Positions 27,030-56,097 of a stretch of 64,000 bases of DNA are shown here, piece by piece (the first letter of the stretch is position 1; every line of letters begins with the position of its first letter). Made by a program: the position numbers and the translations under genes. Source of the DNA: an uncultured virus (IMG/VR IMGVR_UViG_3300032560_000008) (Duplodnaviria > Heunggongvirae > Uroviricota > Caudoviricetes); the IMG/VR virus record IMGVR_UViG_3300032560_000008, one strand, 5' to 3'. The notes beneath the pieces were generated by a model. That model did no database searches, had not been told where the DNA came from, and saw only the letters and a program-made list of their open reading frames with translations.

Positions 27030-27104
27030 TTACCATCTCAAATCTTCTATAACTTGACTCCAAATAGGATTCCAAATTTGACGAGTATAGTTTTTTTCTA
27101 CCAT
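27030..27104 (-). CDS. DDLRW-family microprotein (24 aa)
   Basis: Manual translation MVEKNYTRQIWNPIWSQVIEDLRW*. Confidence 0.6.
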   Translation of the reverse strand: MVEKNYTRQIWNPIWSQVIEDLRW

Positions 27105-27268
27105 TTTAGATCAATTCTAATTTGCTCCCATAAAAGATATTTCAAATTTTGATATACGTCTTGTCCAGTAACATCCCACCAAATTTTATTCATAACGGAA
27201 TCAGAGAACTCATCATGAAATGTATTATTAATTTGAAGTATTGTGCGATCAATTTTATTTCTTACCAT
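27098..27268 (-). CDS. DDLRW-family microprotein, divergent (56 aa)
   Basis: Manual translation MVRNKIDRTILQ...LLWEQIRIDLKW*. Confidence 0.65.
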   Translation of the reverse strand: MVRNKIDRTILQINNTFHDEFSDSVMNKIWWDVTGQDVYQNLKYLLWEQIRIDLKW

Positions 27269-27465
27269 CTTAGATCATCCCAGATTTGAATCAAGACCGG
27301 TTCTATGACCTGAAACCAAACCTGAAACCAAACCTGATGCCCAAACTGATGCCCAACCTGATCCAAGACCTGTTCCCTGACATGATCCAAGACCTGTTCC
27401 CTGACATGATACCTGACCTGATGGGTGATCTGATATCTGACACTATCAATATCTTTCTTTACCAT
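27262..27465 (-). CDS. xxQV-repeat DDLRW microprotein
   Basis: ORF track MVKKDIDSVRYQ...IWDDLRW. Confidence 0.75.
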   Translation of the reverse strand: MVKKDIDSVRYQITHQVRYHVREQVLDHVREQVLDQVGHQFGHQVWFQVWFQVIEPVLIQIWDDLRW

Positions 27466-27626
27466 TTCAGATCATCCTCGGCCTGATACCTAACATGAAT
27501 TCTGATGTGATCCCAAACCTGATCACTGACCTGATCCCAAACCTGATTTCTGATCAGTTCATTCGTATAAATCCAGTGCTTATCCCGGACTTGCCATTTG
27601 GCTTTGTTAATATCACTCTTTACCAT
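27459..27626 (-). CDS. xxQV-repeat DDLKW microprotein
   Basis: Start placed at the junction ATG (MVKSDINK...QAEDDLKW). Confidence 0.7.
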   Translation of the reverse strand: MVKSDINKAKWQVRDKHWIYTNELIRNQVWDQVSDQVWDHIRIHVRYQAEDDLKW

Positions 27627-27782
27627 TCCAACTGATCCATCATTGCCCATAAAAGATCACAACTAAAATTCCAATAGACTTTAATCATCACATCATTTCT
27701 CAATGAAGCAACCTCCTCATAAGCACTATCACTTATGAGGAGGCCACAGTCCCATGATTTAAAGATGTGATCCTTTACAGTC
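27620..27782 (-). pseudogene. Degenerate cassette (VKDHIFK...DQLEW) whose junction ATG appears replaced by ACT
   Basis: CTGAGACTGTAAAG at the end of the DUF6745-like gene resembles the junction CTGAGATGGTAAAG. Confidence 0.4.
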
Positions 27783-28640
27783 TCAGGTACGAACTTCGAG
27801 CTCACGAAGATCTTCCGGATTGAGACCAAAAGTCCAGGCATTGGCTTCTAAAGCAGTCTTCATATCAGGAGGTACTGGGATTGCAAAATCACGACCAGTC
27901 CCGCACTTGACCATCAAAAACTTTTCCTTACCGGCATCAGGCAAATCAACCTCAACGAGAGTGCCGATCTGTTCGTCCTCGTCCTTTTCAACAACAGAAT
28001 AGTTTAGATCCTCAAGAATTTTGCTCCATCCAACAATTTCACATGCTGCACGACGCATCTCGATATTATCTTGACCCAGAGCCTTTGCAGCAGTAAGCGT
28101 TTCCTTTTCCATGATCCATTCACGAGGAACACGAAGACCATGCCAACTATAAACAGCAAAGCCATCGCGATAGAGAACAGATGGACGATCCTCTGCATGA
28201 AGAACATTGTTCTCATCCATACGAATATGAGAAGGACGATCCATAATAATGGCAAGATCCTGTGAAACCCAGACCCAACCCGAACTCTTGGCAAGTTCAA
28301 TCAGACCATTGGCCTTGTTAAGATCAAGACCAACAACTTCCTGGAAGTAGTCAATGTAAGAAGCCCAGTCAGCTTCGTGACCACCGAAGATGATATTGGA
28401 ATTGAATTCGTCCCAAGTAGCGTTGGGAAAAGTCTCACGAAATACCCGAACCATATCCTTGGGACCAGACGCAAACAAAACCGTCTTGGGAGGAGCAAGA
28501 TCTGCAGCCTGATAAGCCATATTCAATGCTGCAACAGCAGCATCACGATCAATCGTCTCAGTAGAGAGACCAATGTCAATCCACTTGTCACGGTAGATCG
28601 GCATCTGATCCTGCTGTTCCTTGGTAAGTTCCGTAATCAT
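27783..28640 (-). CDS. DUF6745-family protein
   Basis: LT.EQ......DKW..IGLST...DR, G.H.A.W....DYF, LA...GW.W, LH.ED.P...Y.DG...Y.WHG..VP, N.E.RR and C-terminal VPP....A..A.AWTFG motifs. Confidence 0.75.
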   Translation of the reverse strand: MITELTKEQQDQMPIYRDKWIDIGLSTETIDRDAAVAALNMAYQAADLAPPKTVLFASGPKDMVRVFRETFPNATWDEFNSNIIFGGHEADWASYIDYFQEVVGLDLNKANGLIELAKSSGWVWVSQDLAIIMDRPSHIRMDENNVLHAEDRPSVLYRDGFAVYSWHGLRVPREWIMEKETLTAAKALGQDNIEMRRAACEIVGWSKILEDLNYSVVEKDEDEQIGTLVEVDLPDAGKEKFLMVKCGTGRDFAIPVPPDMKTALEANAWTFGLNPEDLRELEVRT

Positions 28641-28673
28641 TTTAAGTTCCTTTCACAGTGTTTCAATAAAGGC

Positions 28674-28702
28674 ATAATACCATTGGTTGCTGATATTGTC
28701 AA
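28674..28702 (-). promoter_or_regulatory. Early sigma70-type promoter for the DUF6745-like gene
   Basis: TTGACA-17 nt-TATTAT upstream of AAGGA and ATG. Confidence 0.65.
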
Positions 28703-28710
28703 TGGTTTTT

Positions 28711-28926
28711 TCACCATCTTAGATCATTTTCAAACTGCCACCTGACCTGATCCCAGACCTGATTCCTGACCTGATCCCAGACCTGATTCCTGACCTGATT
28801 ATAGACCTGATATCTGACCTGATCCCAGACCTGATCCCAGACCTGATATCTGACCTGATTATAGACCTGATTATAGACCTGATATCTGACCTGATTCCTA
28901 ACTTTCTTAATTCTATTCATTACCAT
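28711..28926 (-). CDS. xxQV-repeat DLRW microprotein
   Basis: ORF track; near-perfect 4-aa repeats. Confidence 0.75.
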   Translation of the reverse strand: MVMNRIKKVRNQVRYQVYNQVYNQVRYQVWDQVWDQVRYQVYNQVRNQVWDQVRNQVWDQVRWQFENDLRW

Positions 28927-29090
28927 CTTAGATCATCCTCGACCTGATCCCAGACCTGATCCCAGACCTGATACCAGACCTGATCCCAGACCTGATATCT
29001 GACCTGATACCAGACTGGATGCCAGACATGACGATTGACTTGATCCAAGGCCTGATTTGTGTTCATACGCCTAATCTCGTTCTTTACCAT
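28920..29090 (-). CDS. xxQV-repeat DDLRW microprotein (56 aa)
   Basis: Manual translation MVKNEIRRMNTNQALDQVNRHVWHPVWYQVRYQVWDQVWYQVWDQVWDQVEDDLRW*. Confidence 0.75.
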   Translation of the reverse strand: MVKNEIRRMNTNQALDQVNRHVWHPVWYQVRYQVWDQVWYQVWDQVWDQVEDDLRW

Positions 29091-29197
29091 CTCAGATCAT
29101 CCCTAACTTGATCAAATATTTCAATTAATTGAAATATGACTTGTTCTATGATCAAAAACACCTTCGTTGACTTTTCCCCATACTTGGAAACAAACAT
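29084..29197 (-). CDS. Chimeric DDLRW microprotein (37 aa)
   Basis: GAGG Shine-Dalgarno then MFVSKYGEKSTKVFLIIEQVIFQLIEIFDQVRDDLRW*; could instead be a frameshifted longer cassette. Confidence 0.45.
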   Translation of the reverse strand: MFVSKYGEKSTKVFLIIEQVIFQLIEIFDQVRDDLRW

Positions 29198-29282
29198 GAC
29201 ACCTCACAAAAGCAAAGTCAAAGCAATTATCCTTTAAGAAAGTAGTAATAGTGAATGCCATCATTGTATCTACCAAACCTTT

Positions 29283-29480
29283 CTAGCACGGAGCAGAAGA
29301 ACCTTTTAGATAAAACATAACATCTGCAATTTCTGAAGTTGTAAGAGGCGCCTCAAATGGCGCACCCTGATGCATCAGACGATTTGCAAGTCTGGAAAGT
29401 TTCACAGACTCACGGTCATCTGGTGTAGTCTCAGCAATCCCCATAATATGGGAAACAATCGCGGAAATATTCTTGTTCAT
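29283..29480 (-). CDS. Hypothetical early protein (65 aa)
   Basis: MNKNISAIVSHIMG... start follows AAGGGG, right after the ATPase stop; the ORF-track extension overlaps the ATPase. Confidence 0.65.
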   Translation of the reverse strand: MNKNISAIVSHIMGIAETTPDDRESVKLSRLANRLMHQGAPFEAPLTTSEIADVMFYLKGSSAPC

Positions 29481-29481
29481 A

Positions 29482-30354
29482 TTAAACCCCCTTCGTGCAG
29501 GTGATCTTGACAATTTTACGCCAATTGGTCGCATTTGTCTTACGGATCTTACCAATTTTAAGAACCATACGGAGAGAAAGTTCACGCAATTTGTTGTGAT
29601 TATCCTCGACGTATGCAAGAACATCAGACTGACCAGTTTTATCCAGACCGATATTCTCGAGGAGACCATCGCGCACGACTTGACGAATACGGATCAGGTA
29701 ATCGCGTGTGGTTTTCATGGCAAGGTCGATATAATGCGCGCGAGACATCATGGCCTGCATATGAGGCGCACGTTTGTCACCGCGGTCGATCATTGCATCG
29801 AAATCGTGGTTCGTGATGAAAATGATCGTGCCGTCGAACTGAAAGCTCTTGGGCAGAAGTTCGGCAGACTCTTCGTCGACCAAAGCACCTTCGGTGATGT
29901 ATGATACGATACGTTTGTCGTTGCTGTCACACACGGCCTTGAGCAGATTAATCGAGACGTCATCGAACCAAATGGCGTCAGCATCATCGAACACAAGCAC
30001 TTTGCCTGCCTGACGGTGCTGATACAGCAGTTTGAACAAGCCAGGGGCCCGAACGTAACCCTTCACGATCCGATGATTAGCCTCAGACGGATCATGCAGC
30101 TCGAGCGCCTTTTCGACGGTGAATGACTTGCCTAGACCAGCCGGACCAGACACAACCAGGGCACGAACGTCACCGGCGATGGCGGCATCCGTCATCATCG
30201 AAAGGACGTCAAACCGTTCTTGCAGCTTGACCTCAATATCAGAGTCAGACTCGACGACCAGCGGTTCGGCCGGAACGTCAGATCGCACGGTCATCATCCG
30301 AGCAATGTTATTCTTGGTATTACGAAAACCAGACTTAGGAACGCCACGAGGCAT
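29482..30354 (-). CDS. P-loop (AAA-like) ATPase, early gene
   Basis: Walker A GPAGLGKS, Walker B VLVFDDAD, sensor IFITN; likely start MPRGVPKSG. Confidence 0.85.
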   Translation of the reverse strand: MPRGVPKSGFRNTKNNIARMMTVRSDVPAEPLVVESDSDIEVKLQERFDVLSMMTDAAIAGDVRALVVSGPAGLGKSFTVEKALELHDPSEANHRIVKGYVRAPGLFKLLYQHRQAGKVLVFDDADAIWFDDVSINLLKAVCDSNDKRIVSYITEGALVDEESAELLPKSFQFDGTIIFITNHDFDAMIDRGDKRAPHMQAMMSRAHYIDLAMKTTRDYLIRIRQVVRDGLLENIGLDKTGQSDVLAYVEDNHNKLRELSLRMVLKIGKIRKTNATNWRKIVKITCTKGV

Positions 30355-30383
30355 TAGAAACCCTTTCAAACCATCATATATGC

Positions 30384-30412
30384 ATCTTAACTTATTCCGA
30401 GAAATAAGTCAA
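30384..30412 (-). promoter_or_regulatory. Early promoter (TTGACT-17-TAAGAT)
   Basis: Same architecture as the promoters at 30586-30614, 31009-31037 and 31285-31313, each followed 6 nt later by ATGATG. Confidence 0.75.
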
Positions 30413-30423
30413 CCCCATACCGG

Positions 30424-30579
30424 TCAGTTTTTAAACAAAAGTTCGAAGAAGATGGGCAGGGCGTTAGCCCCACCGTAGCGCAAAGCGGCGCAGAACACCG
30501 CGGCCGAGAGGGCGGCGCCCAGGAGGGCATCGCGGCAGGTAAAGAAAACCAGGTCAAACATTTGTCGCTTCATCATCAT
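30424..30579 (-). CDS. Small hydrophobic early protein (51 aa), probably leaderless
   Basis: Manual translation MMMKRQMFDLVFFTCRDALLGAALSAAVFCAALRYGGANALPIFFELLFKN*. Confidence 0.6.
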   Translation of the reverse strand: MMMKRQMFDLVFFTCRDALLGAALSAAVFCAALRYGGANALPIFFELLFKN

Positions 30580-31061
30580 ATATGCATCTTATACCAATTA
30601 AAGAAAAAAGTCAAACCAAGGAAATCAATGGGTTAGCACTAACGTATTGATATGAATGGGAATAAAAAAGTAAATTTTTTAAACCTTTTTTCGTTCTAAT
30701 AGAATCAATAGGTTAGCACCTCGACCTCGTCGACGTTCCTGGGAATTTCTCAAAATTCTCCAATCATATCAATACGTTAGGCTATAGGTCGAAGCCAGAG
30801 AATACTAATAGAATCAATACGTTAGCCGGAAGTGCCCAATTCTAACGATACTAAGCATGCTAAGTGTGGGTTTATACAGCCTAGAAACCTCTAGCATCGT
30901 CTCTCACATAACGTGTTGATATAATTGGGAAATATTTTTTTTAAAAAAGTTGAAAATATTTTCTTAATAAAATCAATGGGTTAGCACTAACGTATTGATA
31001 TGATTAGTTTGACTTTTTTCTTTAATTGGTATAAGATGCATATATGATGATGAAGCGACAA
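30562..31061. repeat. Perfect 55-bp inverted repeat (30562-30616 / 31007-31061) carrying outward-facing early promoters, enclosing iteron-like repeats
   Basis: gtttgacttttttctttaattggtataagatgcatatatgatgatgaagcgacaa and its reverse complement; about 8 internal copies of ATCAATRSGTTAG. Confidence 0.92.
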
Positions 31062-31280
31062 TTGGTTACCTTCGAGACCCTCCTTGTCCCAGGCAATGAA
31101 ACTGCCAAGGGGTGGTGTATCCTGGGCGGTGAATATCGCCCCAAAAGCCTCTGCTCGGTGGAGTATATCTCCGACGAGTACCTGGTACCTGGCGGTAAGG
31201 ATCGGAAAGGTCGCCCTCTCGGGCCGATCGCCGTCCGACGGGCCCGGATCACTATGCCCGAATGGCTGGCCAAAAAATAG
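31044..31280 (+). CDS. Hypothetical early protein, probably leaderless
   Basis: MMMKRQLVTF...MPEWLAKK; ATG 7 nt after the -10 box. Confidence 0.7.
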   Translation: MMMKRQLVTFETLLVPGNETAKGWCILGGEYRPKSLCSVEYISDEYLVPGGKDRKGRPLGPIAVRRARITMPEWLAKK

Positions 31281-31284
31281 GGGT

Positions 31285-31313
31285 TGACTTATTTTTAAAA
31301 ATAGGTTAAGATC
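31285..31313 (+). promoter_or_regulatory. Early promoter (TTGACT-17-TAAGAT)
   Basis: ttgact tatttttaaaaataggt taagat. Confidence 0.7.
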
Positions 31314-31338
31314 CAACTATGATGTTGAGAGGTTCTTA

Positions 31339-31482
31339 ATGATGTACTACGTTGAAATTGTACTTAATGACGGCCGTGTTGCTCGGCGCACAAATCTTAA
31401 GAAGTCAGTAGCGCAAAAAATGCATGATGACCTAGTTAATGAGTTCATTTTTTTGACATTAAAAAAGTTACATGGGGTTTGA
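31339..31482 (+). CDS. Hypothetical early protein (47 aa)
   Basis: GAGG Shine-Dalgarno then MMYYVEIVLNDGRVARRTNLKK... Confidence 0.55.
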   Translation: MMYYVEIVLNDGRVARRTNLKKSVAQKMHDDLVNEFIFLTLKKLHGV

Positions 31483-31565
31483 TGAAATAATTAAAAAACG
31501 ATTGACTTATTTTATTTTATATGATATATTTGTTTTGTAATTAACAACTACAGTGAAGGGTTAAA

Positions 31566-32525
31566 ATGGCACACGAACTTGAAATTAAGAATGGCAAGGC
31601 CTCTATGGCTTATGCTGGACCTACACCTTGGCATGGTCTGGGCACTTGCGTCCCCGATGACCTGACCCCCGAGCAGATGCTCGAGGCAGCAGACCTAAAT
31701 TGGAAGGTCGAGAAGATCCCGGCCTTTGCTAACGTCGGCGGTAAGGACGTTTCCGTCGGTCGGTCTGCTCTGGTACGCACCTCTGATAATACAATTCTTG
31801 ACATTGTTTCTGATGACTGGAATCCCGTTCAAAATTCGGAAGCATTTGAATTCTTCAACGACTTTATTGCCGAAGGTGACATGGAAATGCACACGGCAGG
31901 GTCGCTGAAGGATGGCCAAATTGTCTGGGCGCTTGCAAAGGTCAAGGACGGCTTTTCCCTTTTCAAGGGTGATGAAGTGGAATCGTATCTTCACTTCTCG
32001 AATTTCCACAAATATGGCTTTTCTACCGACGTTCGGTTTACCCCGATCCGTGTGGTGTGTAACAATACCCTGACACTTTCCTTGAATACCAAGGTTGAGC
32101 GGATGGTCAAGTTTTCGCATCGTCGTGAATTCAACGGCGACTCTGTCAAGCTAATGCTCGGTGTTGCCGCCGACAAGCTTGCCAAGTATAAGGAAATGGC
32201 TCAATTCTTGGGTCAAAAGCGTTACACAAACGAGAACATGGTTGAATACTTCAAGCGTGTGTTCCCGGTTGCTACATCTAAGACGGATTCCAAGAAGGAA
32301 TTGTCCAAGCCCGCTAAGACAGTTCTTGAAATTGTCGATACTCAGCCTGGTGCAGAATATGCTCGTGGTACCTTTTGGCAGCTATTTAATGCCACTACGT
32401 ATTACACCGATCATCTTGCCGGTCGGAGTCAGGAAAACCGTCTGCAATCGGCATGGTATGGTTCTAATCGGAACCTGAAAACCCATGCCCTTGAAACTGC
32501 CATTGAAATGGCAGAAGCCGCCTAA
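31566..32525 (+). CDS. DUF932/DUF945-family phage/plasmid protein (TIGR03299-like)
   Basis: MAHE....MAY....PWHGLG, A.L.W.V, QN.EAF.FF, TAGSL..G..VW.LA, TPIRVVCNNTL and GT.W...NA.T.Y.DH motifs. Confidence 0.88.
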   Translation: MAHELEIKNGKASMAYAGPTPWHGLGTCVPDDLTPEQMLEAADLNWKVEKIPAFANVGGKDVSVGRSALVRTSDNTILDIVSDDWNPVQNSEAFEFFNDFIAEGDMEMHTAGSLKDGQIVWALAKVKDGFSLFKGDEVESYLHFSNFHKYGFSTDVRFTPIRVVCNNTLTLSLNTKVERMVKFSHRREFNGDSVKLMLGVAADKLAKYKEMAQFLGQKRYTNENMVEYFKRVFPVATSKTDSKKELSKPAKTVLEIVDTQPGAEYARGTFWQLFNATTYYTDHLAGRSQENRLQSAWYGSNRNLKTHALETAIEMAEAA

Positions 32526-32545
32526 TTTAATAGAAAGGAATTAAA

Positions 32546-32779
32546 ATGAACAATATCAGAGTGACTCTATCATTTGAACGTCTTGACGATAAGGAGCAGC
32601 ATATGCTTGAGAATTATTCTCATACATATTTTGCTTCAGATGAAGATACGTACGATGTTCATCTGGAGAAATTCGAGCAACTTCTTACTGCTATCGGATA
32701 TGTTTTAAATACAAATAATCGTCATCTTGAGCTTGTTGATGAAGAAAATTTGAAAGATAGCATTGTAAACCTAAATTAA
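32546..32779 (+). CDS. Hypothetical protein
   Basis: ORF with AAGGA Shine-Dalgarno in the early operon. Confidence 0.65.
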   Translation: MNNIRVTLSFERLDDKEQHMLENYSHTYFASDEDTYDVHLEKFEQLLTAIGYVLNTNNRHLELVDEENLKDSIVNLN

Positions 32780-32838
32780 CCCTTGACATTTCCTTTTATT
32801 TGATATAATATACAATATACGCTGATAGAGGATATATC

Positions 32839-33978
32839 ATGGCTCGTCGTCCAGTACCTAGTCTTGCTGCAAAGAAGATGAAAAAAGTAAAGTTAACCTT
32901 TACTGAAACACAACTCATCAATTCTAAGTACATGGGCGATGAGCCATTATTCCAATCCACTTCTTTTCTTGATGATATTGCTTATGGCAGAGCACAGAAC
33001 TGGTATCACTATATGTGTACTAGGGATGATGCTCGTAAGTATCTGGATGCATATCTTCGGAACGTAAATCGTACTGAAGATGCCAAGAAAATGAAAAACG
33101 TCTCGGATACTTGGTTCCCTGTAAATGCTGGTTGGATTGCCAGGATGATTACACGTGGCGCCAAGCTCCCTGAAGTTCGTTATGAACAACTTGATAGGTA
33201 TATCAAGGAAAGTTATAAGCATCTCAAAGATAAAGAAGAACTTAAATCAGAAGAAGTAAAAGAAAAACCTTCAATTCAGGATCGTATTACTGATCGTGTT
33301 TCTGATTTTATTGCTATGTTTGAGAAAATGATCGACACATCTGGTTGGTCTGTATCAATGTATGAAACTCTGCAGAAACATGAATTGCCGCCTAATTTGG
33401 CACTCAGAGTCGCAGAATATTATAAACCTATTGCAGATGAGGCAGTAATCCTTGCATCTAAGGGTTGTCCTGCATCTCTTGCAGAAGGTTATTCATACAC
33501 GAAAGAACAACATAAGGAACGGTCGACATTCTACACTTCCGTTGTATCTGATGCAGAAAAATATTCTTCAAATACTAAAAAGAAGAATGTTCAGATACGA
33601 AAGCCCCGACCAGTTTCTTTGGATAAAAAACTTAAGAATGTAAAGTATCTTAAGGAAAGCAAGGAATTTAAATTGGTTTCTATTGCTCCAGAGAAATTGG
33701 TTGGTGCTCAGGAATTCTGGCTCTTTAATACCAGATATAAAACGGCTACCGTATTCTATGCACTAGACCGCGGAGGATTGGACGTTAAGGGAGTAACCAT
33801 CACGAAATATGATGAGAACAAAAGTAAAACGTTCCGATTCGGTAGAAAGGCCGATGACCTATTGACAAAATTACAAAATGGTGGTAAAAGGGTTCTAGAC
33901 AAACTCATGAAGGAATTGAATGTTGGTGCGCTACAAAAGCGGATCAATGAAGATACCATTCTACTTAAAGCAATATAG
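32839..33978 (+). CDS. Conserved T4-like hypothetical protein upstream of gp33
   Basis: Long ORF with its own TTGACA..TATAAT-type promoter near 32783; C-terminal RINEDTILLK. Confidence 0.75.
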   Translation: MARRPVPSLAAKKMKKVKLTFTETQLINSKYMGDEPLFQSTSFLDDIAYGRAQNWYHYMCTRDDARKYLDAYLRNVNRTEDAKKMKNVSDTWFPVNAGWIARMITRGAKLPEVRYEQLDRYIKESYKHLKDKEELKSEEVKEKPSIQDRITDRVSDFIAMFEKMIDTSGWSVSMYETLQKHELPPNLALRVAEYYKPIADEAVILASKGCPASLAEGYSYTKEQHKERSTFYTSVVSDAEKYSSNTKKKNVQIRKPRPVSLDKKLKNVKYLKESKEFKLVSIAPEKLVGAQEFWLFNTRYKTATVFYALDRGGLDVKGVTITKYDENKSKTFRFGRKADDLLTKLQNGGKRVLDKLMKELNVGALQKRINEDTILLKAI

Positions 33979-33986
33979 GAGATTTG

Positions 33987-34214
33987 ATGCCAGTTTTAGA
34001 ACATAATACCACATTCATATCTGATATAGAATCCATTCGGCTTGAGAAGAAAATGGATTACATTGATGCTGTAGTACATTGGTGTGAGAACCATGAACTC
34101 GATGTTGAATATGCTGCTGCTCTTATTAAGAAGGATTCTATTATTAAATTAAAGATACAAGCAGAAGCAGAATCTTTAAATATTCTTAAGAAGACCGCAC
34201 AGCTACCTATATGA
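33987..34214 (+). CDS. gp33: Late transcription coactivator gp33
   Basis: F..DIE, YIDAVV.WCE, K.K...EAE.LN.LK....LPI motifs; upstream of gp59. Confidence 0.85.
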   Translation: MPVLEHNTTFISDIESIRLEKKMDYIDAVVHWCENHELDVEYAAALIKKDSIIKLKIQAEAESLNILKKTAQLPI

Positions 34215-34786
34215 CACCGTTTGAATGCTATAAAGACTATCTTGCTTTGAAGAATCATTTTCAAAGCAAAACTTATGATTATCACAGATATTCTGGTAAA
34301 TCATCTGCTTCATTGGATAGTTTTAATAAAAGAAAAGATAAAATTTTCTTTGAAAAGTTATCAAAACATAAAGATCCACACGATTTGATGCTTTCAAATT
34401 TTGTAGAAAAAGATACTGCATGGGTTAAAGATATAGTATACTCCGAGGAAGCTGAAACCATATATAGTGAATGGATCAAAAAAACTCAATCACTTACATA
34501 TCTTATAACAAATGACTTATCAAAATTTAATGATGATTTTAATTCGAATTTTGCTGTAATTGATAATCAACCACCATATATTTTTAATTTGTATTTGGGT
34601 AAACAAATCTCCTTAGAAACTATATGTGTTCTTTCTGATTTAACAGGATGTATGAAATATTGGAATAAGATGCTCAAGGACAATCCAATATGGGAAACAT
34701 TCTCTCTTAAGTTTAAGAAATACACACCATTTATTAAATACGACAAGGAAAAGATTAGGAAAATAATTGTTGACAAATTTTCCTAA
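34211..34786 (+). CDS. gp59: Helicase loader gp59
   Basis: FECYK.YLALKNHF....YDY..Y.GK, F.KRKD..FFEKL, YL...ISLET and KY.PF motifs. Confidence 0.9.
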   Translation: MTPFECYKDYLALKNHFQSKTYDYHRYSGKSSASLDSFNKRKDKIFFEKLSKHKDPHDLMLSNFVEKDTAWVKDIVYSEEAETIYSEWIKKTQSLTYLITNDLSKFNDDFNSNFAVIDNQPPYIFNLYLGKQISLETICVLSDLTGCMKYWNKMLKDNPIWETFSLKFKKYTPFIKYDKEKIRKIIVDKFS

Positions 34787-34830
34787 TGTGTTATAATGAG
34801 ACTATAAACCAATATTGAAAGGATTACAAA

Positions 34831-35181
34831 ATGCGTACTTTTACTAAGATGGCTGCCCAGGGTGATTTTGTTATCATTAAGATTGCAGAATTGCCTACTA
34901 ATATCAAGGCTGTGGCTCCTGAGCAAGGCCAGATTGTGGTTGCTCACTCTGAGACGGGTCACAATCACGTGATGGAAGCTTCTCGAGTCAAGGCATATGA
35001 ACTTGAGGTTGATAGTGGTCAGGATATCTACGAATTGTTCTTGAATGTGGAAGCACCTACTCCGATTGAACATCTGCGGAGTTATCACACCCACGAGTCA
35101 ATTATGGTTGATCCTGGCATTTACCGTATTCGGCGACAGCGAGAATATACGCCAGAGGGATGGCGAAAGGCTGCCGACTAA
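34831..35181 (+). CDS. Small His-motif beta protein, probable DUF6745 partner
   Basis: QGD, HSETGHNH, H...H and G.Y.IRRQREY..... motifs, recalled as the family usually adjacent to DUF6745 genes; own TTGACA-17-TATAAT promoter at 34770. Confidence 0.7.
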   Translation: MRTFTKMAAQGDFVIIKIAELPTNIKAVAPEQGQIVVAHSETGHNHVMEASRVKAYELEVDSGQDIYELFLNVEAPTPIEHLRSYHTHESIMVDPGIYRIRRQREYTPEGWRKAAD

Positions 35182-35190
35182 CATTGAAGA

Positions 35191-35216
35191 GCCGGGGAGA
35201 AATCCCCGGTTTTTTA
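35191..35216 (+). terminator. Intrinsic terminator
   Basis: gccgggga-gaaa-tccccggt followed by a T run. Confidence 0.8.
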
Positions 35217-35231
35217 TTGAAGGTTTTTGAT

Positions 35232-35366
35232 ATGAGACAAAATGTTATCCAGCAAGCAATCAGAGATCAGATTTGGGACCAAGTCAAGTATCAGGTCAGG
35301 TATCAGGTCTGGTATCAGATCTTGGATCGGGGCTGGGATCAAATTGGAGATGATCTAAGATGGTGA
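35232..35366 (+). CDS. xxQV-repeat DDLRW microprotein C1 (44 aa)
   Basis: MRQNVIQQAIRDQIWDQV...IGDDLRW; start after GAAGG. Confidence 0.7.
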   Translation: MRQNVIQQAIRDQIWDQVKYQVRYQVWYQILDRGWDQIGDDLRW

Positions 35367-35575
35367 AGAATAGTATTGATAGCGTCAGGTATCAGGTCTG
35401 GGGTCCGGTCAGGTATCAGGTCTTGCATCAGGTCAGGGATCGGGTCTGGGGTCCGGTCAGGTATCAGGTCAGGGATCGCGTCTTGAATCAGGTCTTGCAT
35501 CAGGTCAGGTATCAGGTCAGGGATCGCGTCTTGAATCAGGTTGAGGTTCAGATTAAAGATAATCTAAGATGGTGA
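35360..35575 (+). CDS. xxQV-repeat microprotein C2
   Basis: ORF track. Confidence 0.75.
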   Translation: MVKNSIDSVRYQVWGPVRYQVLHQVRDRVWGPVRYQVRDRVLNQVLHQVRYQVRDRVLNQVEVQIKDNLRW

Positions 35576-35796
35576 GGAAAAGTATTGATATAGCAATGGT
35601 TAAAGTCTATAATCAGGTCTTGATTCAGGTCAGGAATCAAGACTATAATCAGGTCAGGAATCAGGTCTGGGATCAGGTCTATAATCAGGTCAGGGATCAG
35701 GTCTGGTATCAGGTCTGGAATCAGGTCTGGTATCAGGTCAGACGACAGGTGAGGTATCAAATATTTGATCAAGTTAGGGATGATCTGAGATGGTAA
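35569..35796 (+). CDS. xxQV-repeat microprotein C3
   Basis: ORF track. Confidence 0.75.
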   Translation: MVRKSIDIAMVKVYNQVLIQVRNQDYNQVRNQVWDQVYNQVRDQVWYQVWNQVWYQVRRQVRYQIFDQVRDDLRW

Positions 35797-35981
35797 AAGA
35801 AAATATTAACCAGACCTGGAGTCAGATCTTGGATCAGGTCTATATTCAGGTCGGCGATCAGGTCTGGAGTCGGGCCTGGAATCATGTCAAGGGTCAGACC
35901 TGGGATCAGGTCCATATTCAGGTCTATATTCAGGTTGGGTATCAGGTCAGGGATCAGTGTTGGGATGATCTGAGATGGTGA
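35790..35981 (+). CDS. xxQV-repeat microprotein C4
   Basis: ORF track. Confidence 0.75.
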   Translation: MVKENINQTWSQILDQVYIQVGDQVWSRAWNHVKGQTWDQVHIQVYIQVGYQVRDQCWDDLRW

Positions 35982-36106
35982 AGAATAGTATTGATAAAGT
36001 CTGGTATCAGGTCAAAGATCAGGTCAGATATCAGGTATCGACTAGAGTATGGTATCAGGTCAAAGATCAGGTCTGGGATCAGGTCAAGGATGATTTGAAA
36101 TGGTAA
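35975..36106 (+). CDS. xxQV-repeat microprotein C5 (43 aa)
   Basis: Manual translation MVKNSIDKVWYQVKDQVRYQVSTRVWYQVKDQVWDQVKDDLKW*. Confidence 0.75.
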   Translation: MVKNSIDKVWYQVKDQVRYQVSTRVWYQVKDQVWDQVKDDLKW

Positions 36107-36351
36107 GGCAAAGTATTGATAAAGTCTATAATCAGGTCAGGGATCAGGTCAGGAATCAGGTCTATAATCAGGTCAGGAATCAGGTCTGGTATCAGGTCAG
36201 GAATCAGGTCTGGGATCAGGTCTATAATCAGGTCAGGGATCAGGTCATCCGACAGGTCTGGTATCAGGTCAAAGATCAGGTCAAAGATCAGGTCTGGTAT
36301 CAGGTCAAAGATCAGGTCTGGGATCAGGTCAAGGATGATCTGAGATGGTGA
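36100..36351 (+). CDS. xxQV-repeat microprotein C6
   Basis: ORF track. Confidence 0.75.
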   Translation: MVRQSIDKVYNQVRDQVRNQVYNQVRNQVWYQVRNQVWDQVYNQVRDQVIRQVWYQVKDQVKDQVWYQVKDQVWDQVKDDLRW

Positions 36352-36548
36352 AGAATAAGATTGGTAAAATCAGGTATCAGGTCTGGGATCAGGTCTATTG
36401 TCAGGTTGGGTATCAGGTCTGGTATCAGGTCAAAGATCAGGTCTGGTATCAGGTTGGGTATCAGGTCTGGTATCAGGTCAAAGATCAGGTCTGGTATCAG
36501 GTCAAAGATCAGGTCTGGGATCAGGTCAAGGATGATCTGAGATGGTGA
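36345..36548 (+). CDS. xxQV-repeat microprotein C7
   Basis: ORF track. Confidence 0.75.
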   Translation: MVKNKIGKIRYQVWDQVYCQVGYQVWYQVKDQVWYQVGYQVWYQVKDQVWYQVKDQVWDQVKDDLRW

Positions 36549-36724
36549 AGAATAAGATATGGCATTACGCCCGAAGTAGATTTGAATATCAAGTCGGATG
36601 TCTGATAAAGGAACAAGTCAATGGTCAGATCAGAGGTCAGGTTCATAATCAAATCTGGGATCGGATCAGACACCGTATCGAGAATCAAATCTTTTTTCAA
36701 ACCCTAGAGGAACTGAGATGGTAG
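36542..36724 (+). CDS. Divergent cassette microprotein C8 (ends EELRW)
   Basis: ORF track. Confidence 0.7.
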   Translation: MVKNKIWHYARSRFEYQVGCLIKEQVNGQIRGQVHNQIWDRIRHRIENQIFFQTLEELRW

Positions 36725-36825
36725 TCCATAAAATTAATGGTGTTAAAGGCAAGTGTTTAACACAAATTATAGCTGATGTAAAAGACGATCTAAATGTTGA
36801 TCTAGAAGAATGGTATAAATGGTGA
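36718..36825 (+). CDS. Divergent terminal cassette C9 (35 aa)
   Basis: Manual translation MVVHKINGVKGKCLTQIIADVKDDLNVDLEEWYKW*. Confidence 0.5.
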   Translation: MVVHKINGVKGKCLTQIIADVKDDLNVDLEEWYKW

Positions 36826-36833
36826 TAATGATA

Positions 36834-38122: not shown

Positions 38123-38158
38123 AAACAATCCTTCTTTTTCTTATTTATAAGAATTGTT

Positions 38159-43888: not shown

Positions 43889-43897
43889 AATATATCC

Positions 43898-45758: not shown

Positions 45759-46155
45759 GTATTCTCTTTCTCAATTCTGTTGAACTATAAGAATGATTTC
45801 TAGTATTGTAAATAATTTCGGTTCCCACTTGCATACAGACTGTTGTTCCTGTAAGTGAAATTCTCATATATTCAACACCAACAAATCGTTTAGTAGGCCT
45901 TATGATACCGATCAGATTTTCTAAATCCTTTTCAGTATCATAAGGAATAATCTTGTCAATATACTTACAAGCTTCTAGTTGAATATATCGTTCTAAAATT
46001 GATTGGATAGGCTTATTCTTGTGTTTTCTATCAATGGAAGGATCTGTTTGGAGGCCTACAACAAGATAGTCACATTGTTCCTTACATTCCTTAAGCATAG
46101 CAATATGACCTGCATGGAATAAATCAAATGCAGAACATGTAAACCCTACAATCAT
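45730..46155 (-). CDS. Cytidylyltransferase-family nucleotidyltransferase (TagD / HldE-C-like)
   Basis: FDL.HAGH, L.VG...D, ER and SST.LR motifs; start at MIVGFTCS. Confidence 0.85.
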   Translation of the reverse strand: MIVGFTCSAFDLFHAGHIAMLKECKEQCDYLVVGLQTDPSIDRKHKNKPIQSILERYIQLEACKYIDKIIPYDTEKDLENLIGIIRPTKRFVGVEYMRISLTGTTVCMQVGTEIIYNTRNHSYSSTELRKRIHDASVTTHR

Positions 46156-46976
46156 TGAATCACCATATACGTATTCTTTCCATCCCATGGTGTTTCTGAA
46201 AAGACTGTAAATGTAGGATCTCTATCTCTATCCTTGAACATAGTTCTGAAATATTCATCATTTACTTCCTTTCCAAAAATCTTAGCTTGATACATGACAA
46301 GCCAATTCTTGGAGTCGATGATTGTAGGCATCAATTTCTCACGGTATTCCAATGGAGTTTCCGAAAGAGACCATGTTGCAATAACCAAATCCGCAGGTTC
46401 TACATCAGTAGATTCAAACCTGAAATTTGCATTGATACCTTGCTTCTTTAAATAGTAATCCTGAATTGGGCTAATTTCTGGAATATCAATAATAGTATAT
46501 TTACCAGTAAACCCCATTTTATGAACTACAGAACACATGTCACCATATCCAGCACCAATTTCAATAATGCTTTTATAACTGGACAATCTTTCTGGTGTAA
46601 AGTCTGTAATGACCAAATGACCGACATCCTGAATTCGTTGAATTGATGTATCAAAATCACTCAGAGCACGAAATACTTCTGCCTTTTCAACAGGGATGCC
46701 AATCCAATTTTCTTTTAACGCTTCTGCTACAATAGGGTTTTTATATGCTTCCGAAAGAGCAGCAGCATAAAATTTGCCTGTTCTATATTGAGTTACAAAA
46801 GGAACATTGTGAACACTTGCCCAAAGCCTAAAGCGAGAAAGAGGTAAATGCTTGCAATCATATTCAAAAACTTCACGCATTGTTGGCCAATATTCAGGCC
46901 CATTTACCTGTTTAGCCTTAATCATCTTTTGTGAATTGAGTGAATTATGATCAAAATCAGACCAAATAAACATCAT
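46152..46976 (-). CDS. Putative sugar O-methyltransferase
   Basis: IIEIGAGYG, Y.I.D.P and A.WSLSE motifs. Confidence 0.75.
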   Translation of the reverse strand: MMFIWSDFDHNSLNSQKMIKAKQVNGPEYWPTMREVFEYDCKHLPLSRFRLWASVHNVPFVTQYRTGKFYAAALSEAYKNPIVAEALKENWIGIPVEKAEVFRALSDFDTSIQRIQDVGHLVITDFTPERLSSYKSIIEIGAGYGDMCSVVHKMGFTGKYTIIDIPEISPIQDYYLKKQGINANFRFESTDVEPADLVIATWSLSETPLEYREKLMPTIIDSKNWLVMYQAKIFGKEVNDEYFRTMFKDRDRDPTFTVFSETPWDGKNTYMVIQ

Positions 46977-47386
46977 TCAGCTCCACTTTCATGAGCTGGT
47001 GGTGTTTGCAATATTGCTTTTCGTTCAATAAAACCAGTCCGAATTGTCTTAGCATTAAAATACTTGACCATCATATTTTCAACAATTCTTACATCATATG
47101 GCTTGCATGAGAATACATCTAGATAGACTTCATCATTTTCATCCACAAAATGAGCGCAAATGTTTGAAGTTTCGATAAGTTGAACTAGAGTATATCCAGA
47201 CTTATCTCCTGATCCAAACTTTACAATCTGTGGTTCACCATATGGAACCATGTCAATTTCCTTGACCAGTTCCTTTGCAAAATTATAGATATTATCATAA
47301 TCTGTAATTGAATTGTGATTACAGCCTGCAGCATCCATAATACAGTGCCAACCCCATGGGGTTACCTTATCAGTCACATATAACAT
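46973..47386 (-). CDS. speD: SpeD (AdoMetDC)-like decarboxylase, copy 2
   Basis: WG.H...D...C, GYTLVQLIETSNI.AHF and YLDVFSCKP motifs. Confidence 0.82.
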   Translation of the reverse strand: MLYVTDKVTPWGWHCIMDAAGCNHNSITDYDNIYNFAKELVKEIDMVPYGEPQIVKFGSGDKSGYTLVQLIETSNICAHFVDENDEVYLDVFSCKPYDVRIVENMMVKYFNAKTIRTGFIERKAILQTPPAHESGAE

Positions 47387-47937: not shown

Positions 47938-47954
47938 AATATAAACTCCTAATA

Positions 47955-48931: not shown

Positions 48932-48959
48932 TGATACCTTCGTTTTTTATTTATTTATT

Positions 48960-49436: not shown

Positions 49437-49517
49437 TTACCGCTTACGATTGAGAGCCCGAGCTCTCCGCTTTGACGAGCCGATCTTCCGTCGGCCTTTC
49501 TTCTTTGGAGCTGCCAT
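49437..49517 (-). CDS. Tiny basic peptide (26 aa) overlapping the end of the GIY-YIG gene
   Basis: AAGGAAAAG then MAAPKKKGRRKIGSSKRRARALNRKR*. Confidence 0.5.
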   Translation of the reverse strand: MAAPKKKGRRKIGSSKRRARALNRKR

Positions 49518-49920
49518 GTTCTTTTCCTTTCTTCAAATGTGAACGTCGAATCCGACAAGATATCCATGCATTATAGTAATCATCACGTTCAAGGACTCTT
49601 TCTTGAAACTGGTAAAGAGCTTCAATATAACTACATTCACCTTTAGTTTTGCAAAGAGCAAGTATCTCTCGTTTAAATTTGTTTGTGCCGAGAGCTTGAA
49701 CATCCTGTTGTAATTCAAGATTGGATCCATAATAGGTTTCCCAATCAGAATCTACAACATATTTTTTCTTTTTTCCTTTCACCATCTTTGTTCGTTTGAA
49801 CTTCAGAAGTTTTTTACCAATATACATTTTCCCATTGGTAAGATTGGTTATCTTATACACATAACCAATATACACCATAAGTTGGGTTTTGTCAACTTCT
49901 TTATTCTCATAAAGCCACAT
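49444..49920 (-). CDS. GIY-YIG (Seg-like) endonuclease-family protein
   Basis: GYVYKITN..NG.MYIGKK, Y.GS, F.REIL and YYN motifs. Confidence 0.82.
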   Translation of the reverse strand: MWLYENKEVDKTQLMVYIGYVYKITNLTNGKMYIGKKLLKFKRTKMVKGKKKKYVVDSDWETYYGSNLELQQDVQALGTNKFKREILALCKTKGECSYIEALYQFQERVLERDDYYNAWISCRIRRSHLKKGKEHGSSKEERPTEDRLVKAESSGSQS

Positions 49921-49957
49921 AAAAGGTAATCCATAATATTACCTTTTATTTATTACT

Positions 49958-51049: not shown

Positions 51050-51060
51050 TTAAAATTCCT

Positions 51061-53352: not shown

Positions 53353-53370
53353 TAATATATCCTATTAAAA

Positions 53371-53481: not shown

Positions 53482-53482
53482 A

Positions 53483-54306: not shown

Positions 54307-54309
54307 TAC

Positions 54310-54579
54310 TTATTCCTCTTTATCTTCAAAGATATCTTCTTCATACCAGAAGTAATCTTTTATATTTTCAACAATAGTTCTGTATGGTTCATGAACAACC
54401 ATTTTGGGACTTGGATCAGAATTTATAACTATTTCCATACACATTTCAATGATTAATTCGGCAAACTTTTCTAATTCATTATCGACATAAACTTCACAGT
54501 CACGCCCTTCCTTGATAAGGGACCCATTATATTCATCAAATCCTGCTTCTTTGGCTAATTCTTTAATAAATTTATTCAT
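54310..54579 (-). CDS. Hypothetical protein (IKELA..AG / LEKFAELII..C type)
   Basis: Probable start MNKFIKELAKEAGF. Confidence 0.6.
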   Translation of the reverse strand: MNKFIKELAKEAGFDEYNGSLIKEGRDCEVYVDNELEKFAELIIEMCMEIVINSDPSPKMVVHEPYRTIVENIKDYFWYEEDIFEDKEE

Positions 54580-55031
54580 AGATATACACCTGCATTTTTC
54601 TTGTCTTTCATAATGTGGCATTGCATATCCTGTCGGAATTTTTCACGACCTTCAGCACTTTGTGTGGTGAAATTTATCATGTAAGCCAATGTTCCGCTTG
54701 ATCCAAAATACACACAAGCATGAGTATGAGTTTGAACTATCACTGTGTATGCTGGTGTCATTGCAGCACCACCCATGCCTCCATATCCCAAAGAAGTGTT
54801 TCCCCACACCTGGGGAAACATGATCACTTCAATGTCTTTTTCATATGGGCGTCTGGTTTTGTCTATTCTGGGAGCCAATCTATCGTTTTTCATAGATTCC
54901 TTTTTCTCAGTTTCAGTCATTTTACTCCACAGTGACCAATCCCGACCTTGATAATGTATATCAGGAAGATCGCGATAAATGGCTGCAGCCACCGATTGAT
55001 GAACTGCTTCGATTGGTGATCCAAGTTGCAT
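54576..55031 (-). CDS. Hypothetical phage protein
   Basis: FPQ.WG.T.LG.GG.GG.AMT.AYT motif; GAGGA Shine-Dalgarno. Confidence 0.7.
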   Translation of the reverse strand: MQLGSPIEAVHQSVAAAIYRDLPDIHYQGRDWSLWSKMTETEKKESMKNDRLAPRIDKTRRPYEKDIEVIMFPQVWGNTSLGYGGMGGAAMTPAYTVIVQTHTHACVYFGSSGTLAYMINFTTQSAEGREKFRQDMQCHIMKDKKNAGVYL

Positions 55032-55074
55032 TTTAAGTCCTCTTAATTATGAATAATAGCAAAAGCAAAGCAAG

Positions 55075-55290
55075 TCATTGGTAAAAACTCCCAGGCTGTC
55101 CGGTTGCGTTGCTGTTTGTGCATGCAAGCCGGTGATCTGAATGATGTGGACATCTTTTGTTGCCGCAAATTTCACACGCATAGCGAAAATATAAGTCTTG
55201 ACCAGTAAGACTTGTGATAAAATCAGCCTCTGGCAATTCTTGACGGCGTTTGTCCTGACACGACAAACATCCGCATGGTTTCTCGGTCAT
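55075..55290 (-). CDS. Small Cys/His-rich (Zn-binding) protein
   Basis: C.C..C and C..CGNKRCP...DH...C..SN..GQ.GS motifs; start MTEKPC after GGAGG. Confidence 0.65.
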   Translation of the reverse strand: MTEKPCGCLSCQDKRRQELPEADFITSLTGQDLYFRYACEICGNKRCPHHSDHRLACTNSNATGQPGSFYQ

Positions 55291-55489
55291 TCTGGTGCCT
55301 CCATCATTCCTCTTCTTCCTCAACAGGGAATGAATCCATCTTGATCCCAAAAACCAAATTTCTGCATGGTTTCTGTTAGTGATTCCATACAATCATCACC
55401 TACAACCAACCGATTGATATAATATACCAAACTGTTGATAATTTCTTCATCTTTATAAAGTTGCATTATTGCATCCTCCAATATATTAT

Positions 55490-55696
55490 TCATAAAAAAA
55501 TAACCATTCCGTCAGTGTTTAGTGCAATTTCATTCTTTTCAAGACCCTGTTGGATCATTTCAATCACTTGCTTTTTGGGATATGTTTTGGTCAGTGTATC
55601 AACCAGATAAGTTGGATTAATGCCACCATGATCAACAACAACCGAAGCAGATTCCAATGCTTCTTTCAAACGGGATAAATGATTTTTTTCAGTCAT
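55490..55696 (-). CDS. Hypothetical protein
   Basis: ORF track. Confidence 0.55.
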   Translation of the reverse strand: MTEKNHLSRLKEALESASVVVDHGGINPTYLVDTLTKTYPKKQVIEMIQQGLEKNEIALNTDGMVIFL

Positions 55697-55774
55697 TTCA
55701 CTTGCTTTTTCTAGTTTCTGTTAAATTTTAACATATTATATTTTATCTGCTCCCGACTTTATCAATACTTTTCC

Positions 55775-55936
55775 TCACCATTTTAGATCATCCATGGCCT
55801 GAACACCGCCATTTTCTACCTGATTAACATGATTCCAGACCCGATACCCAACCTGATACCAAGCCTGATACCAGACTTGCCAACTGACCTGATTATAGAC
55901 CTGATCCCTGACTTTATCAATACTTTTCTTTACCAT
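55775..55936 (-). CDS. xxQV-repeat microprotein D2 (53 aa)
   Basis: Manual translation MVKKSIDKVRDQVYNQVSWQVWYQAWYQVGYRVWNHVNQVENGGVQAMDDLKW*. Confidence 0.7.
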   Translation of the reverse strand: MVKKSIDKVRDQVYNQVSWQVWYQAWYQVGYRVWNHVNQVENGGVQAMDDLKW

Positions 55937-56097
55937 CTTAAATCATCCCAACCCTGATACCAGACCTGAACCTTGACATGATTCCAGGCCCGACTCCAGA
56001 CCTGATCACCGACCTGATACACAACCTCATCATTGACCTGTCGTCTGACTTGATTCCAGACCTTTCCTCCAACTTGACAAATCTCGTGAAATATCAT
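55930..56097 (-). CDS. xxQV-repeat microprotein D1 (55 aa)
   Basis: Manual translation MIFHEICQVGGKVWNQVRRQVNDEVVYQVGDQVWSRAWNHVKVQVWYQVGDDLRW*; ATGA overlap with the upstream gene. Confidence 0.7.
   Translation of the reverse strand: MIFHEICQVGGKVWNQVRRQVNDEVVYQVGDQVWSRAWNHVKVQVWYQGWDDLRW

Follow-up and report, generated by a model that had tools for sequence, protein, structure and literature searches.

Arrays of tetrapeptide-repeat mini-genes and a tract-less DUF6745 gene in a T4-like phage genome: a candidate split form of a phage DUF6745 module

The mini-gene arrays, the DUF6745 gene and its partner

The DNA analyzed here (the window) was a stretch of 64,000 nucleotides (nt) from an uncultured virus (IMG/VR record IMGVR_UViG_3300032560_000008), and its gene content indicated a T4-like myovirus as the source. 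A preliminary description made from the sequence had pointed out four arrays of very small genes and linked them to a gene of the DUF6745 family. The arrays were found exactly where it had placed them, namely array A at 27030-27782, B at 28711-29197, C at 35232-36825 and D at 55743-56097. Its figure of about 20 micro-genes also agreed with the present count of approximately 21, consisting of 17 cassettes with four-residue units (tetrads) and the family tail plus four atypical small open reading frames (ORFs), which were a tryptophan-ended repeat-less ORF (36718-36825), an MVK-headed ORF of 26 amino acids (aa) (28637-28717), a linker ORF and a head remnant. The cassettes encoded 24-83 aa, and the typical one was composed of an MVK/R-x-x-I-D-K head, 5-18 x-x-Q-V tetrads and a DDL(R/K)W tail.

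When read from the true starts, arrays B and A formed a single chain on the minus strand together with the DUF6745 gene. The chain began with the three cassettes of array B, which were B1 (29084-29197; 37 aa, degenerate tetrads, tail DDLRW), B2 (28920-29090; 56 aa) and B3 (28711-28926; 71 aa). The 26-aa MVK-headed ORF, which had no tetrads, came next, its start overlapping the B3 stop (ATGGTGA) and its stop overlapping the start of the DUF6745 gene (ATGA). The DUF6745 gene (27783-28640; 285 aa) was followed by the repeat-less linker ORF ending in DQLEW (27620-27782; start uncertain), the stop of which overlapped the MVK start of cassette A1 (27459-27626; 55 aa counted from this start). Cassettes A2 (27262-27465; 67 aa), A3 (27098-27268; 56 aa, decayed tetrads, tail IDLKW) and A4 (27030-27104; 24 aa) completed the chain.

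The other two arrays were located 6 and 27 kb from the DUF6745 gene. Array C, consisting of nine ORFs on the plus strand, came after a gene for a 116-aa protein (34831-35181, plus strand), designated here as the partner. Its cassettes were C1 (35232-35366; 44 aa when begun at MRQNV, with a further open ATG upstream at 35160), C2 (35360-35575; 71 aa), C3 (35569-35796; 75 aa), C4 (35790-35981; 63 aa), C5 (35975-36106; 43 aa), C6 (36100-36351; 83 aa), C7 (36345-36548; 67 aa) and C8 (36542-36724; 60 aa, decayed tetrads, tail EELRW), and the last ORF (36718-36825) encoded 35 aa without tetrads, ending in EEWYKW. Array D, on the minus strand, came after an SGNH/GDSL-like hydrolase gene (56094-56510), the stop of which overlapped the start of D1 (55930-56097; 55 aa) as ATGA. 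This cassette was followed by D2 (55775-55936; 53 aa) and, at the end of the array, by a cassette-head remnant of 12 codons (MVRKSIDKVGSR; 55743-55781).

Tandem Repeats Finder detected a 12-nt period in all the four arrays. Three in-register CARGTY units occurred 56 times and the junction GAYYTRARATGGTRR occurred 15 times, compared with 0 in 100 shuffles in both cases, and every match was inside the four arrays. Among 129 xxQ[VI] units, the first position was mainly W (39), R (31), Y (13) or K (12), and the second was mainly D (38), Y (34) or N (25). All 18 of 18 cassette ends read ..ATGG TRR, so that the stop was overlapped by an ATG each time, and the stop/start overlap between successive cassettes was ATGGTRA. 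Shine-Dalgarno (SD)-like AGGA or GGGA was present 9-12 nt before most of these overlaps, within the tail codons.

The assignment of 27783-28640 to DUF6745 in the preliminary description was confirmed by a match of residues 83-278 to PF20530 (121.2 bits compared with a cut-off of 27; E 4.8e-35), and the protein also matched phrog_31813. The family-invariant residues, determined from the invariant columns of alignments A1 (21 sequences) and A2 (12 sequences) with the window protein included, were present in it as G.H.A.W, WHG, ACEI.GW, CGTGR and a C-terminal RT. It was likewise correct that this copy was devoid of an internal repeat, since no lag-4 tract was detected and a short stretch, FPNATWDEFNSNII, occupied that spot. 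The partner matched phrog_27831 only, with no family in the Pfam search, and carried conserved His motifs; phmmer returned 0 PDB hits at E <= 10, and the Atlas search gave unnamed clusters only, mostly viral. As stated in the preliminary description, a gene of this kind was the usual neighbor of DUF6745; 75 of 80 viral loci and 39 of 40 bacterial ones had it, usually at a distance of <=100 nt and on the same strand. Unlike these loci with adjacent genes, the window had the partner 6.2 kb from DUF6745 on the opposite strand. This exception was shared (6 kb off, opposite strand) by two closely related IMG/VR fragments, L012, with 99.99% identity over 16.4 kb, and L013, with approximately 99% identity.

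Internal tracts, mini-genes and predicted docking

The DUF6745 family was large, with 11,968 representatives (50% identity) at E <= 0.001 and 2,529 at E <= 1e-30. The bacterial copies belonged to the early regions of prophages, where their neighbors were CI/S24 repressors, P63C, RusA, C5 methylase, RdgC and integrase. Within cultured phages, the module was found only in the Microcystis phage Ma-LMM01 group, a single siphovirus genome from spring water and a single Mycobacterium prophage, and a set of 50,697 phage records yielded no cultured phage with the split form. The Ma-LMM01 genes gp174/gp175, representing a tract-free long form, were placed among replication genes (polymerase and clamp loader). 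In the window, a sigma70-like promoter match, TTGACA-16-TATAAT with an extended TG (12/12; a consensus match only), preceded the partner gene at 34770-34797 on the plus strand, and a second sigma70-like site (11/12) preceded DUF6745 at 28702-28674 on the minus strand, inside the 26-aa ORF. These sites and the prophage contexts pointed to probable early expression of the module. In three lake metatranscriptomes (X22-X24), contigs that were 90-99% alike reached parts of the DUF6745 and partner genes and not the arrays; this coverage was uninformative on the mini-genes because such contigs break in repeats and DNA can occur in RNA libraries. Searches of Pfam, PHROGs, PADLOC, NCBIfam, PDB and Atlas gave no named function, with nothing above noise in PADLOC or NCBIfam for DUF6745, the partner or the cassette. 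Literature searches returned no paper with 'DUF6745', none with four typical tetrad strings, and no DUF6745 study.

A clear tract of tetrads was present in 40 of the 150 best family representatives and in 52 of 127 distinct DUF6745 loci, with a length of 28-237 residues in the latter. The preliminary description had expected such a repeat just before the G.H.A.W motif, and in full-length relatives it stood directly before G.H[DE]A.W, as 10-50 tetrads between the N-terminal domain and YG.HDA.W; this position corresponded to residues ~73-86 of the window protein. The tracts were of various flavors (xxQV, xxSV, xxAV, xxQL, xSSL, AATx and SAAx), with an aliphatic or small residue at each fourth position as the common feature. 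Examples of tract-bearing proteins were a copy in a Methylopila jiangsuensis prophage (L098, 412 aa), gp38 of Mycobacterium phage prophiGD102-1 and a protein of Caudoviricetes sp. MW202476 (425 aa, xSSL). The flavors SANL and RDNI were additionally observed, and the loci with flavors other than xxQV (xSSL, AATx, xxQL, SANL, RDNI and SAAx) were L094, L099-L102, L105, L106, L114, L119, L120, L123 and L127 together with L266 5356-6633, which is MW202476. The mini-protein repeats were homologous to the DUF6745 tract. The search with the 83-aa cassette gave 51 hits, among which were fragments starting like DUF6745 and continuing into xxQV tetrads (P0123, P0128, P0130 and P0139), and the profile of alignment A2 matched the arrays at its tract positions only. 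The window shared with the known DUF6745 systems the N- and C-terminal domains, the partner gene, a 4-residue repeat and a phage early or replication setting, and differed from the tract-bearing ones in that the tract was encoded as approximately 17 separate, coupled mini-genes in four arrays.

The relationship between tract and mini-genes was investigated in 200 loci, 120 collected via DUF6745 and 80 via the DNA pattern of the repeat, the latter route favoring loci with repeats. DUF6745 was present in 163 of them, and 127 were distinct by the last 120 residues. The internal tract and the mini-genes excluded each other: only 1 of the 52 tract-bearing loci had two or more mini-genes outside the gene, while 40 of the 75 tract-less loci had two or more, 8 had one, and 27 had none in the DNA covered. 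Fisher's test gave p 6.6e-11, a value that is descriptive only as the rows were related and partly chosen by the repeat. A tree of the last 195 residues was constructed with FastTree, a quick method, from 119 rows after 8 rows shorter than 240 aa had been dropped. In this unrooted tree, the window DUF6745 (via L012) was in a clade of 53 rows (support 98) without any tract-bearing member, 33 of which had mini-genes and 20 did not. Seven more split cases were placed with tract-bearing forms, which would allow for multiple origins. The mutually exclusive distribution, with most of the tract-less and split forms in one clade, supported the earlier view that the repeat had been externalized as a diversified library.

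The reverse search, in which viral contigs were scanned for four in-register units, gave at least 133 stretches, and the 80 with flanks represented 65 distinct contigs. Among the matches listed, these 65 contigs comprised 23 with internal tracts, 14 with mini-genes and DUF6745 within 10 kb, and 28 without DUF6745 in the locus. Inspection of 7 of these 28 loci identified five unrelated simple repeats (L148, L156, L170, L178 and L208), and the true arrays among the loci inspected were L140, L154 and L190. A PF20530 search of the whole records G002 (the record of L148), G003, G004 and G005 detected none. One of them, G004 (the record of L190; 80,291 bases), had arrays at both contig ends and a 221-aa ORF consisting purely of xxQV tetrads. 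The claim that the arrays are tied to DUF6745 thus stood as a strong co-occurrence, but the link was not shown to be absolute, since three records with true arrays (G003, G004 and G005) contained neither DUF6745 nor the partner. The 83-aa cassette gave no match by tblastn against 50,697 phage records, a result of little weight as the low-complexity filter was on.

The AlphaFold2 model of the tract-less DUF6745 protein had a predicted local distance difference test (pLDDT) score of 90.5. Foldseek returned 0 PDB matches at E <= 0.001, and the best Z in a VIA-align comparison with 48,161 chains was 4.1 (68 residues); neither result establishes a new fold. In the AlphaFold2 model of a fused relative, the tract was a helical hairpin (H57-97 and H106-163) extending two helices beside the site that is empty in the window protein. 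The window DUF6745 (alignment A1) was then modeled in complex with cassette B3 (28711-28926; alignment A3). The interaction prediction score from aligned errors (ipSAE) was 0.70, 0.73 and 0.83 (median 0.73), compared with 0.01 for the best of 3 controls, the control with a replaced core scoring 0.00. The docked partner had a pLDDT of 78 or more, and no fewer than 67% of the contacts were common between runs. Of 157 solved complexes, 116 attained the scoring mark, as did 2 of 215 mismatched pairs; these counts are rough here because custom alignments were used. The pass could not be attributed to memory of known structures because there was no solved relative. The modeled interface comprised residues 10-25, 42-48, 60-68 and 76-113 of DUF6745, flanking the empty tract site, and residues 12-71 of the cassette. 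A cassette mini-protein is thus predicted to bind the tract-less DUF6745 core. The suggestion that the mini-proteins serve as trans-acting subunits gained support from this controlled model. It is the best of the three functional options raised in the preliminary description, the others being decoys and donor cassettes, but the role itself is only a predicted one.

A proposed split module and its alternatives

Taken as a whole, including docking and counter-defense, the explanation that we judge to have slightly better than an even chance is that the arrays and the tract-less DUF6745 gene are a split form of the phage DUF6745 module. In most relatives, prophages and temperate phages included, the N-terminal domain, a tract of 10-50 units and the C-terminal domain are in one protein, the unit having two variable residues followed by a polar and an aliphatic residue (such as QV, SV, AV or QL). 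In the split form, the tract would be encoded as approximately 17 free mini-proteins of 24-83 aa in translationally coupled chains, which are located around DUF6745, behind the partner gene and, at a distance of 27 kb, in a third place. Each mini-protein would be a helix docking on the tract-less core beside the exit point of the tract, as in the complex model, and one core could thereby carry many exchangeable surfaces. By analogy, the module may be directed, in the early phase of infection, at a variable target belonging to the host or a prophage, counter-defense being its most likely role, and variation of the repeats would retune it.

The analogy is to gp54 of phage Tweety, in which repeat number has such an effect. 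Tweety gp54 and its counterparts Che8 gp57 and PMC gp51 have 15-48 tetrapeptides, encoded by a 12-nt unit, between unique N- and C-terminal parts, and gp54 itself has 40-48 AAxx (PMC2884959). The third codon positions of the unit are fixed and the first and second are variable, from which its authors infer selection for variation (PMC2884959). Escape mutants with more or fewer repeats in gp54 are described as overcoming the Phrann gp29/gp30 defense (review, PMC9262239). The gp54 gene is in the early region beside immunity genes, and the window unit resembles that of gp54 in being 12 nt long and in having codons that vary at their first and second positions and are fixed at the third. The two differ in the unit (AAxx in gp54 and xxQV in the window), and the gp54 tract is internal without any mini-genes. 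The SAAx tract of L123 resembled the AAxx unit of gp54. Membership of gp54 in DUF6745 was considered and rejected, as gp54 matched 0 Pfam families at E <= 0.01 and hhalign against DUF6745 gave a probability of 0.1%; tblastn with DUF6745 queries did not find Tweety, and no partner homologue adjoined gp54. A further analogue is variable region 2 of bbp36 in Bordetella phage BMP-1, for which the citing paper mentions a tandem in-frame 24-bp repeat with a copy number varying between isolates (cited in PMC2884959). Unlike the window arrays, this 24-bp element is not divided into separate genes.

In a more specific version of the split module, which we put forward tentatively and regard as possible rather than probable, a conserved core of the tract-less DUF6745, probably together with the 116-aa partner, would be armed in trans by any of approximately 17 exchangeable helical mini-subunits diversified by slippage and inter-array shuffling. 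The lytic phage would thereby present many target-binding surfaces at once, or switch between them, for early counter-defense or host takeover, and modular hypervariable systems of this kind would be a new class, with a distribution across freshwater phages. A competing explanation, to which we assign a smaller though real chance, is that the mini-proteins act alone or on the DUF6745 proteins of others, as free effectors, decoys or dominant-negative partners of tract-bearing proteins from prophages or competitors. Such genes are indeed common in prophages, the distances of arrays C and D from DUF6745 would fit independent action, and G003, G004 and G005 had arrays without DUF6745 or the partner, the tetrad-only ORF of G004 being an extreme case. 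However, the exclusion between tract and mini-genes is as a split predicts, translational coupling joins arrays A and B to DUF6745, and the complex model passed with the phage's own core. In addition, G003 and G005 are fragments, and the arrays of G004 lie at both ends of the contig, so the missing 8% may contain DUF6745 and the partner.

Comparison of the window with its close relatives demonstrated in-frame and fast turnover of the arrays, involving loss or gain of units, loss of whole cassettes and copying between arrays. L012 differed from the window in the absence of exactly cassette C7 (36345-36548). In L013, array B had two cassettes compared with three in the window, one of which was a chimera of array C cassettes, and array A contained an A1/C1 chimeric cassette followed by a copy of cassette C2 (35360-35575) identical at 216 of 216 nt. 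The DUF6745 genes of L013 and the window had 18 nt differences, just 3 of which changed an amino acid. Contigs of the lake DNA run X1 carried a 24-nt (two-unit) deletion at 36124, within cassette C6, and several joints within array C. The frame was kept in all the clean strain variants. At 7760-7987 of L013, in the opening cassette of array A, the MVK start had ATT in place of ATG, leaving only an upstream ATG (MGNDGSVG..) as a possible start.

The sequence of the units was compared across 18 lineages. The Q codon was CAG in 7 and CAA in 11, and the V codon was GTC in 15 and GTT, GTA and GTG in 1 each, the Q and V residues being unchanged. Heads and tails differed by lineage (MKSVK..KARTEP, MNSV..QIDE, MKQVS..KENLK and MKLKSV..RTIHR), and the design of overlapping stop and start was common to all. 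The mini-genes look like real genes because Q and V were kept via different codons across lineages and the strain differences were in frame; the codon pattern and the lineage-specific ends fit selection at the protein level on repeats homogenized by slippage. Two arguments of the preliminary description for protein-level selection carried little weight. The open frames say little by themselves, as a 12-nt repeat leaves all three frames open (the SGIRS and LIPDL frames too). The kept terminal Trp and DDLRW tail are poor evidence, because the tail shares its nucleotides with the SD-like stretch, the stop and the start that follows, and the tails of other lineages are quite different. The comparison of lineages also showed the DDLRW tail to be at least partly a coupling signal.

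We consider it quite improbable that the 12-nt repeats function at the DNA or RNA level, examples being protein-binding iterons, sites of recombination or replication, and structured RNA, with the small ORFs being incidental. What speaks for such a function is the nucleotide pattern. An 8-nt unit core, ATCAGGTC, was fixed, and the remaining 4 nt were variable and nearly C-free: C was counted at unit nucleotides 1-4 in 2, 2, 3 and 9 of the 129 units, although these nucleotides varied freely. At their synonymous sites, the codons for Q, V and D/N hardly varied within a genome, contrary to genome codon usage, as seen in unit positions 9 (G in 108 of 129) and 12 (C in 103 of 129). The module also lies among replication genes, gp32 and gp59 in the window and the polymerase and clamp loader in Ma-LMM01. 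Against this, the residues Q and V were constant while their codons differed between lineages, and the tracts of other relatives shared only the period-4 aliphatic pattern (SV, AV, QL, SSL and AAT) with unrelated DNA. The start, stop and SD punctuation recurred every 70-250 nt in all the lineages with lineage-specific heads and tails, every variant was in frame, and in fused relatives the tract is translated within a conserved protein.

The movement of cassettes and the formation of chimeras between arrays, with the exact copy of cassette C2 and the two chimeric cassettes in L013, would be expected if the arrays were silent donors recombining into an expressed recipient as in antigenic variation, a role also listed in the preliminary description. 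This is very improbable, since the genome showed no recipient tract, the sole DUF6745 gene found having none to take in a cassette. Moreover, each cassette comes with a start, a stop and a coupling signal of its own, and neither a recombinase nor a reverse transcriptase is beside the arrays. A diversity-generating retroelement was also considered and rejected, as no reverse transcriptase family was found among the 58 window ORFs of at least 90 aa. Least probable of all, with next to no chance, are precursor peptides resembling ribosomally synthesized and post-translationally modified peptides (RiPPs), modified by DUF6745 and/or the His-rich partner, for although many small ORFs with a common head and tail and a variable core adjoin two uncharacterized proteins and the partner His motifs are conserved, the repeat is in-line inside DUF6745 in thousands of relatives, which is ill-suited to a cleaved substrate, the neighbors include no known RiPP enzyme, protease or exporter family, and the common head and tail overlap the coupling junction.

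Several observations weigh against the split module itself. Arrays C and D do not adjoin DUF6745, 27 of the 75 tract-less loci showed no mini-gene in the DNA covered, and of the three true-array records lacking both DUF6745 and the partner, one is estimated to be 92% complete. The Q and V codons were nearly single-valued within each genome, synonymous sites included. In the window tetrads (95 units), CAG accounted for 94% and GTC for 82%, compared with 68% CAA and 13% GTC in the long ORFs. Given these near-fixed codons and the C-poor nucleotides 1-4, a constraint at the DNA or RNA level may also act. The tract hairpin of the fused relative was modeled at a pLDDT of only 44-61. The complex score is a model confidence and amphipathic helices dock easily. 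Both the binding and the translation of the mini-proteins are predicted. As Tweety gp54 is not homologous, the counter-defense role is by analogy only, and no functional hint was given by PADLOC, NCBIfam, Pfam or fold searches.

Particular to this window were the library spread over three sites with DUF6745 and the partner pulled apart, and the whole-cassette loss and inter-array copying that its close relatives revealed. DUF6745 is a large phage and prophage family, the hypervariable tract of which resembles the only studied tetrapeptide-repeat phage protein, one that retunes counter-defense by repeat number. If the split-module explanation is true, many fast-recombining mini-proteins on one core would be an undescribed route to diversity of viral protein surfaces, and each genome would add to the map tens of very small genes that usually go unannotated.

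Surroundings of the module in the window

The gp32 gene was located at 25742-26653 and gp59 at 34211-34786, and the window also encoded the baseplate genes gp5/6/8/25/53, RNase H, nrdA/B, ThyX, PhoH, transaldolase and two speD. The identity of the window gp32 to those of cyanomyoviruses and Caulobacter phage Cr30 was 50-64%. Megablast of 26800-37000 against the 50,697 phage records gave zero matches, and DNA near-identical to the window was found in lake-water metagenomes. A further constant component of the module was sought by tblastn across 125 distinct DUF6745 loci and rejected. The AAA ATPase (29482-30369) was found in 10, DUF932 in 16, phrog_11903 in 18 and gp59 in 16, and this recurrence is T4-like synteny, not a fixed part of the module.

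Directly downstream of array A and upstream of gp32, a permuted phage-borne transfer-messenger RNA (tmRNA) was identified at 26649-27039 on the minus strand. It matched Rfam RF04321 (107 bits) and alpha_tmRNA RF01849 (79 bits), and ARAGORN gave ANDNVAFEGTALAA as its tag peptide. The alpha-type match may hint at the host group. The region at 30372-31324, approximately 950 nt without a convincing ORF, contained nested inverted repeats (128-nt arms, 80% complementary) and direct repeats of 23-44 nt. Contigs of the DNA run X1 broke within or near it, with loose ends at 30323, 30354 and 31052, and it could be a variable element, a mobile element or an origin.

Two S-adenosylmethionine decarboxylase genes were located at 37679-38128 and 46973-47386. 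A sugar-nucleotide-like cluster at 41874-46188 comprised genes for GHMP kinase, GT1, transaldolase, HAD, SIS and cytidylyltransferase proteins. A gene for a SegE-like GIY-YIG endonuclease (49444-49920) was beside nrdB, and one for a TnsA-like endonuclease (18879-19307) was among the baseplate genes. The first 110 nt of the window (1-110) were a run of 36.7 CAC triplets with a super-period of 21 nt.

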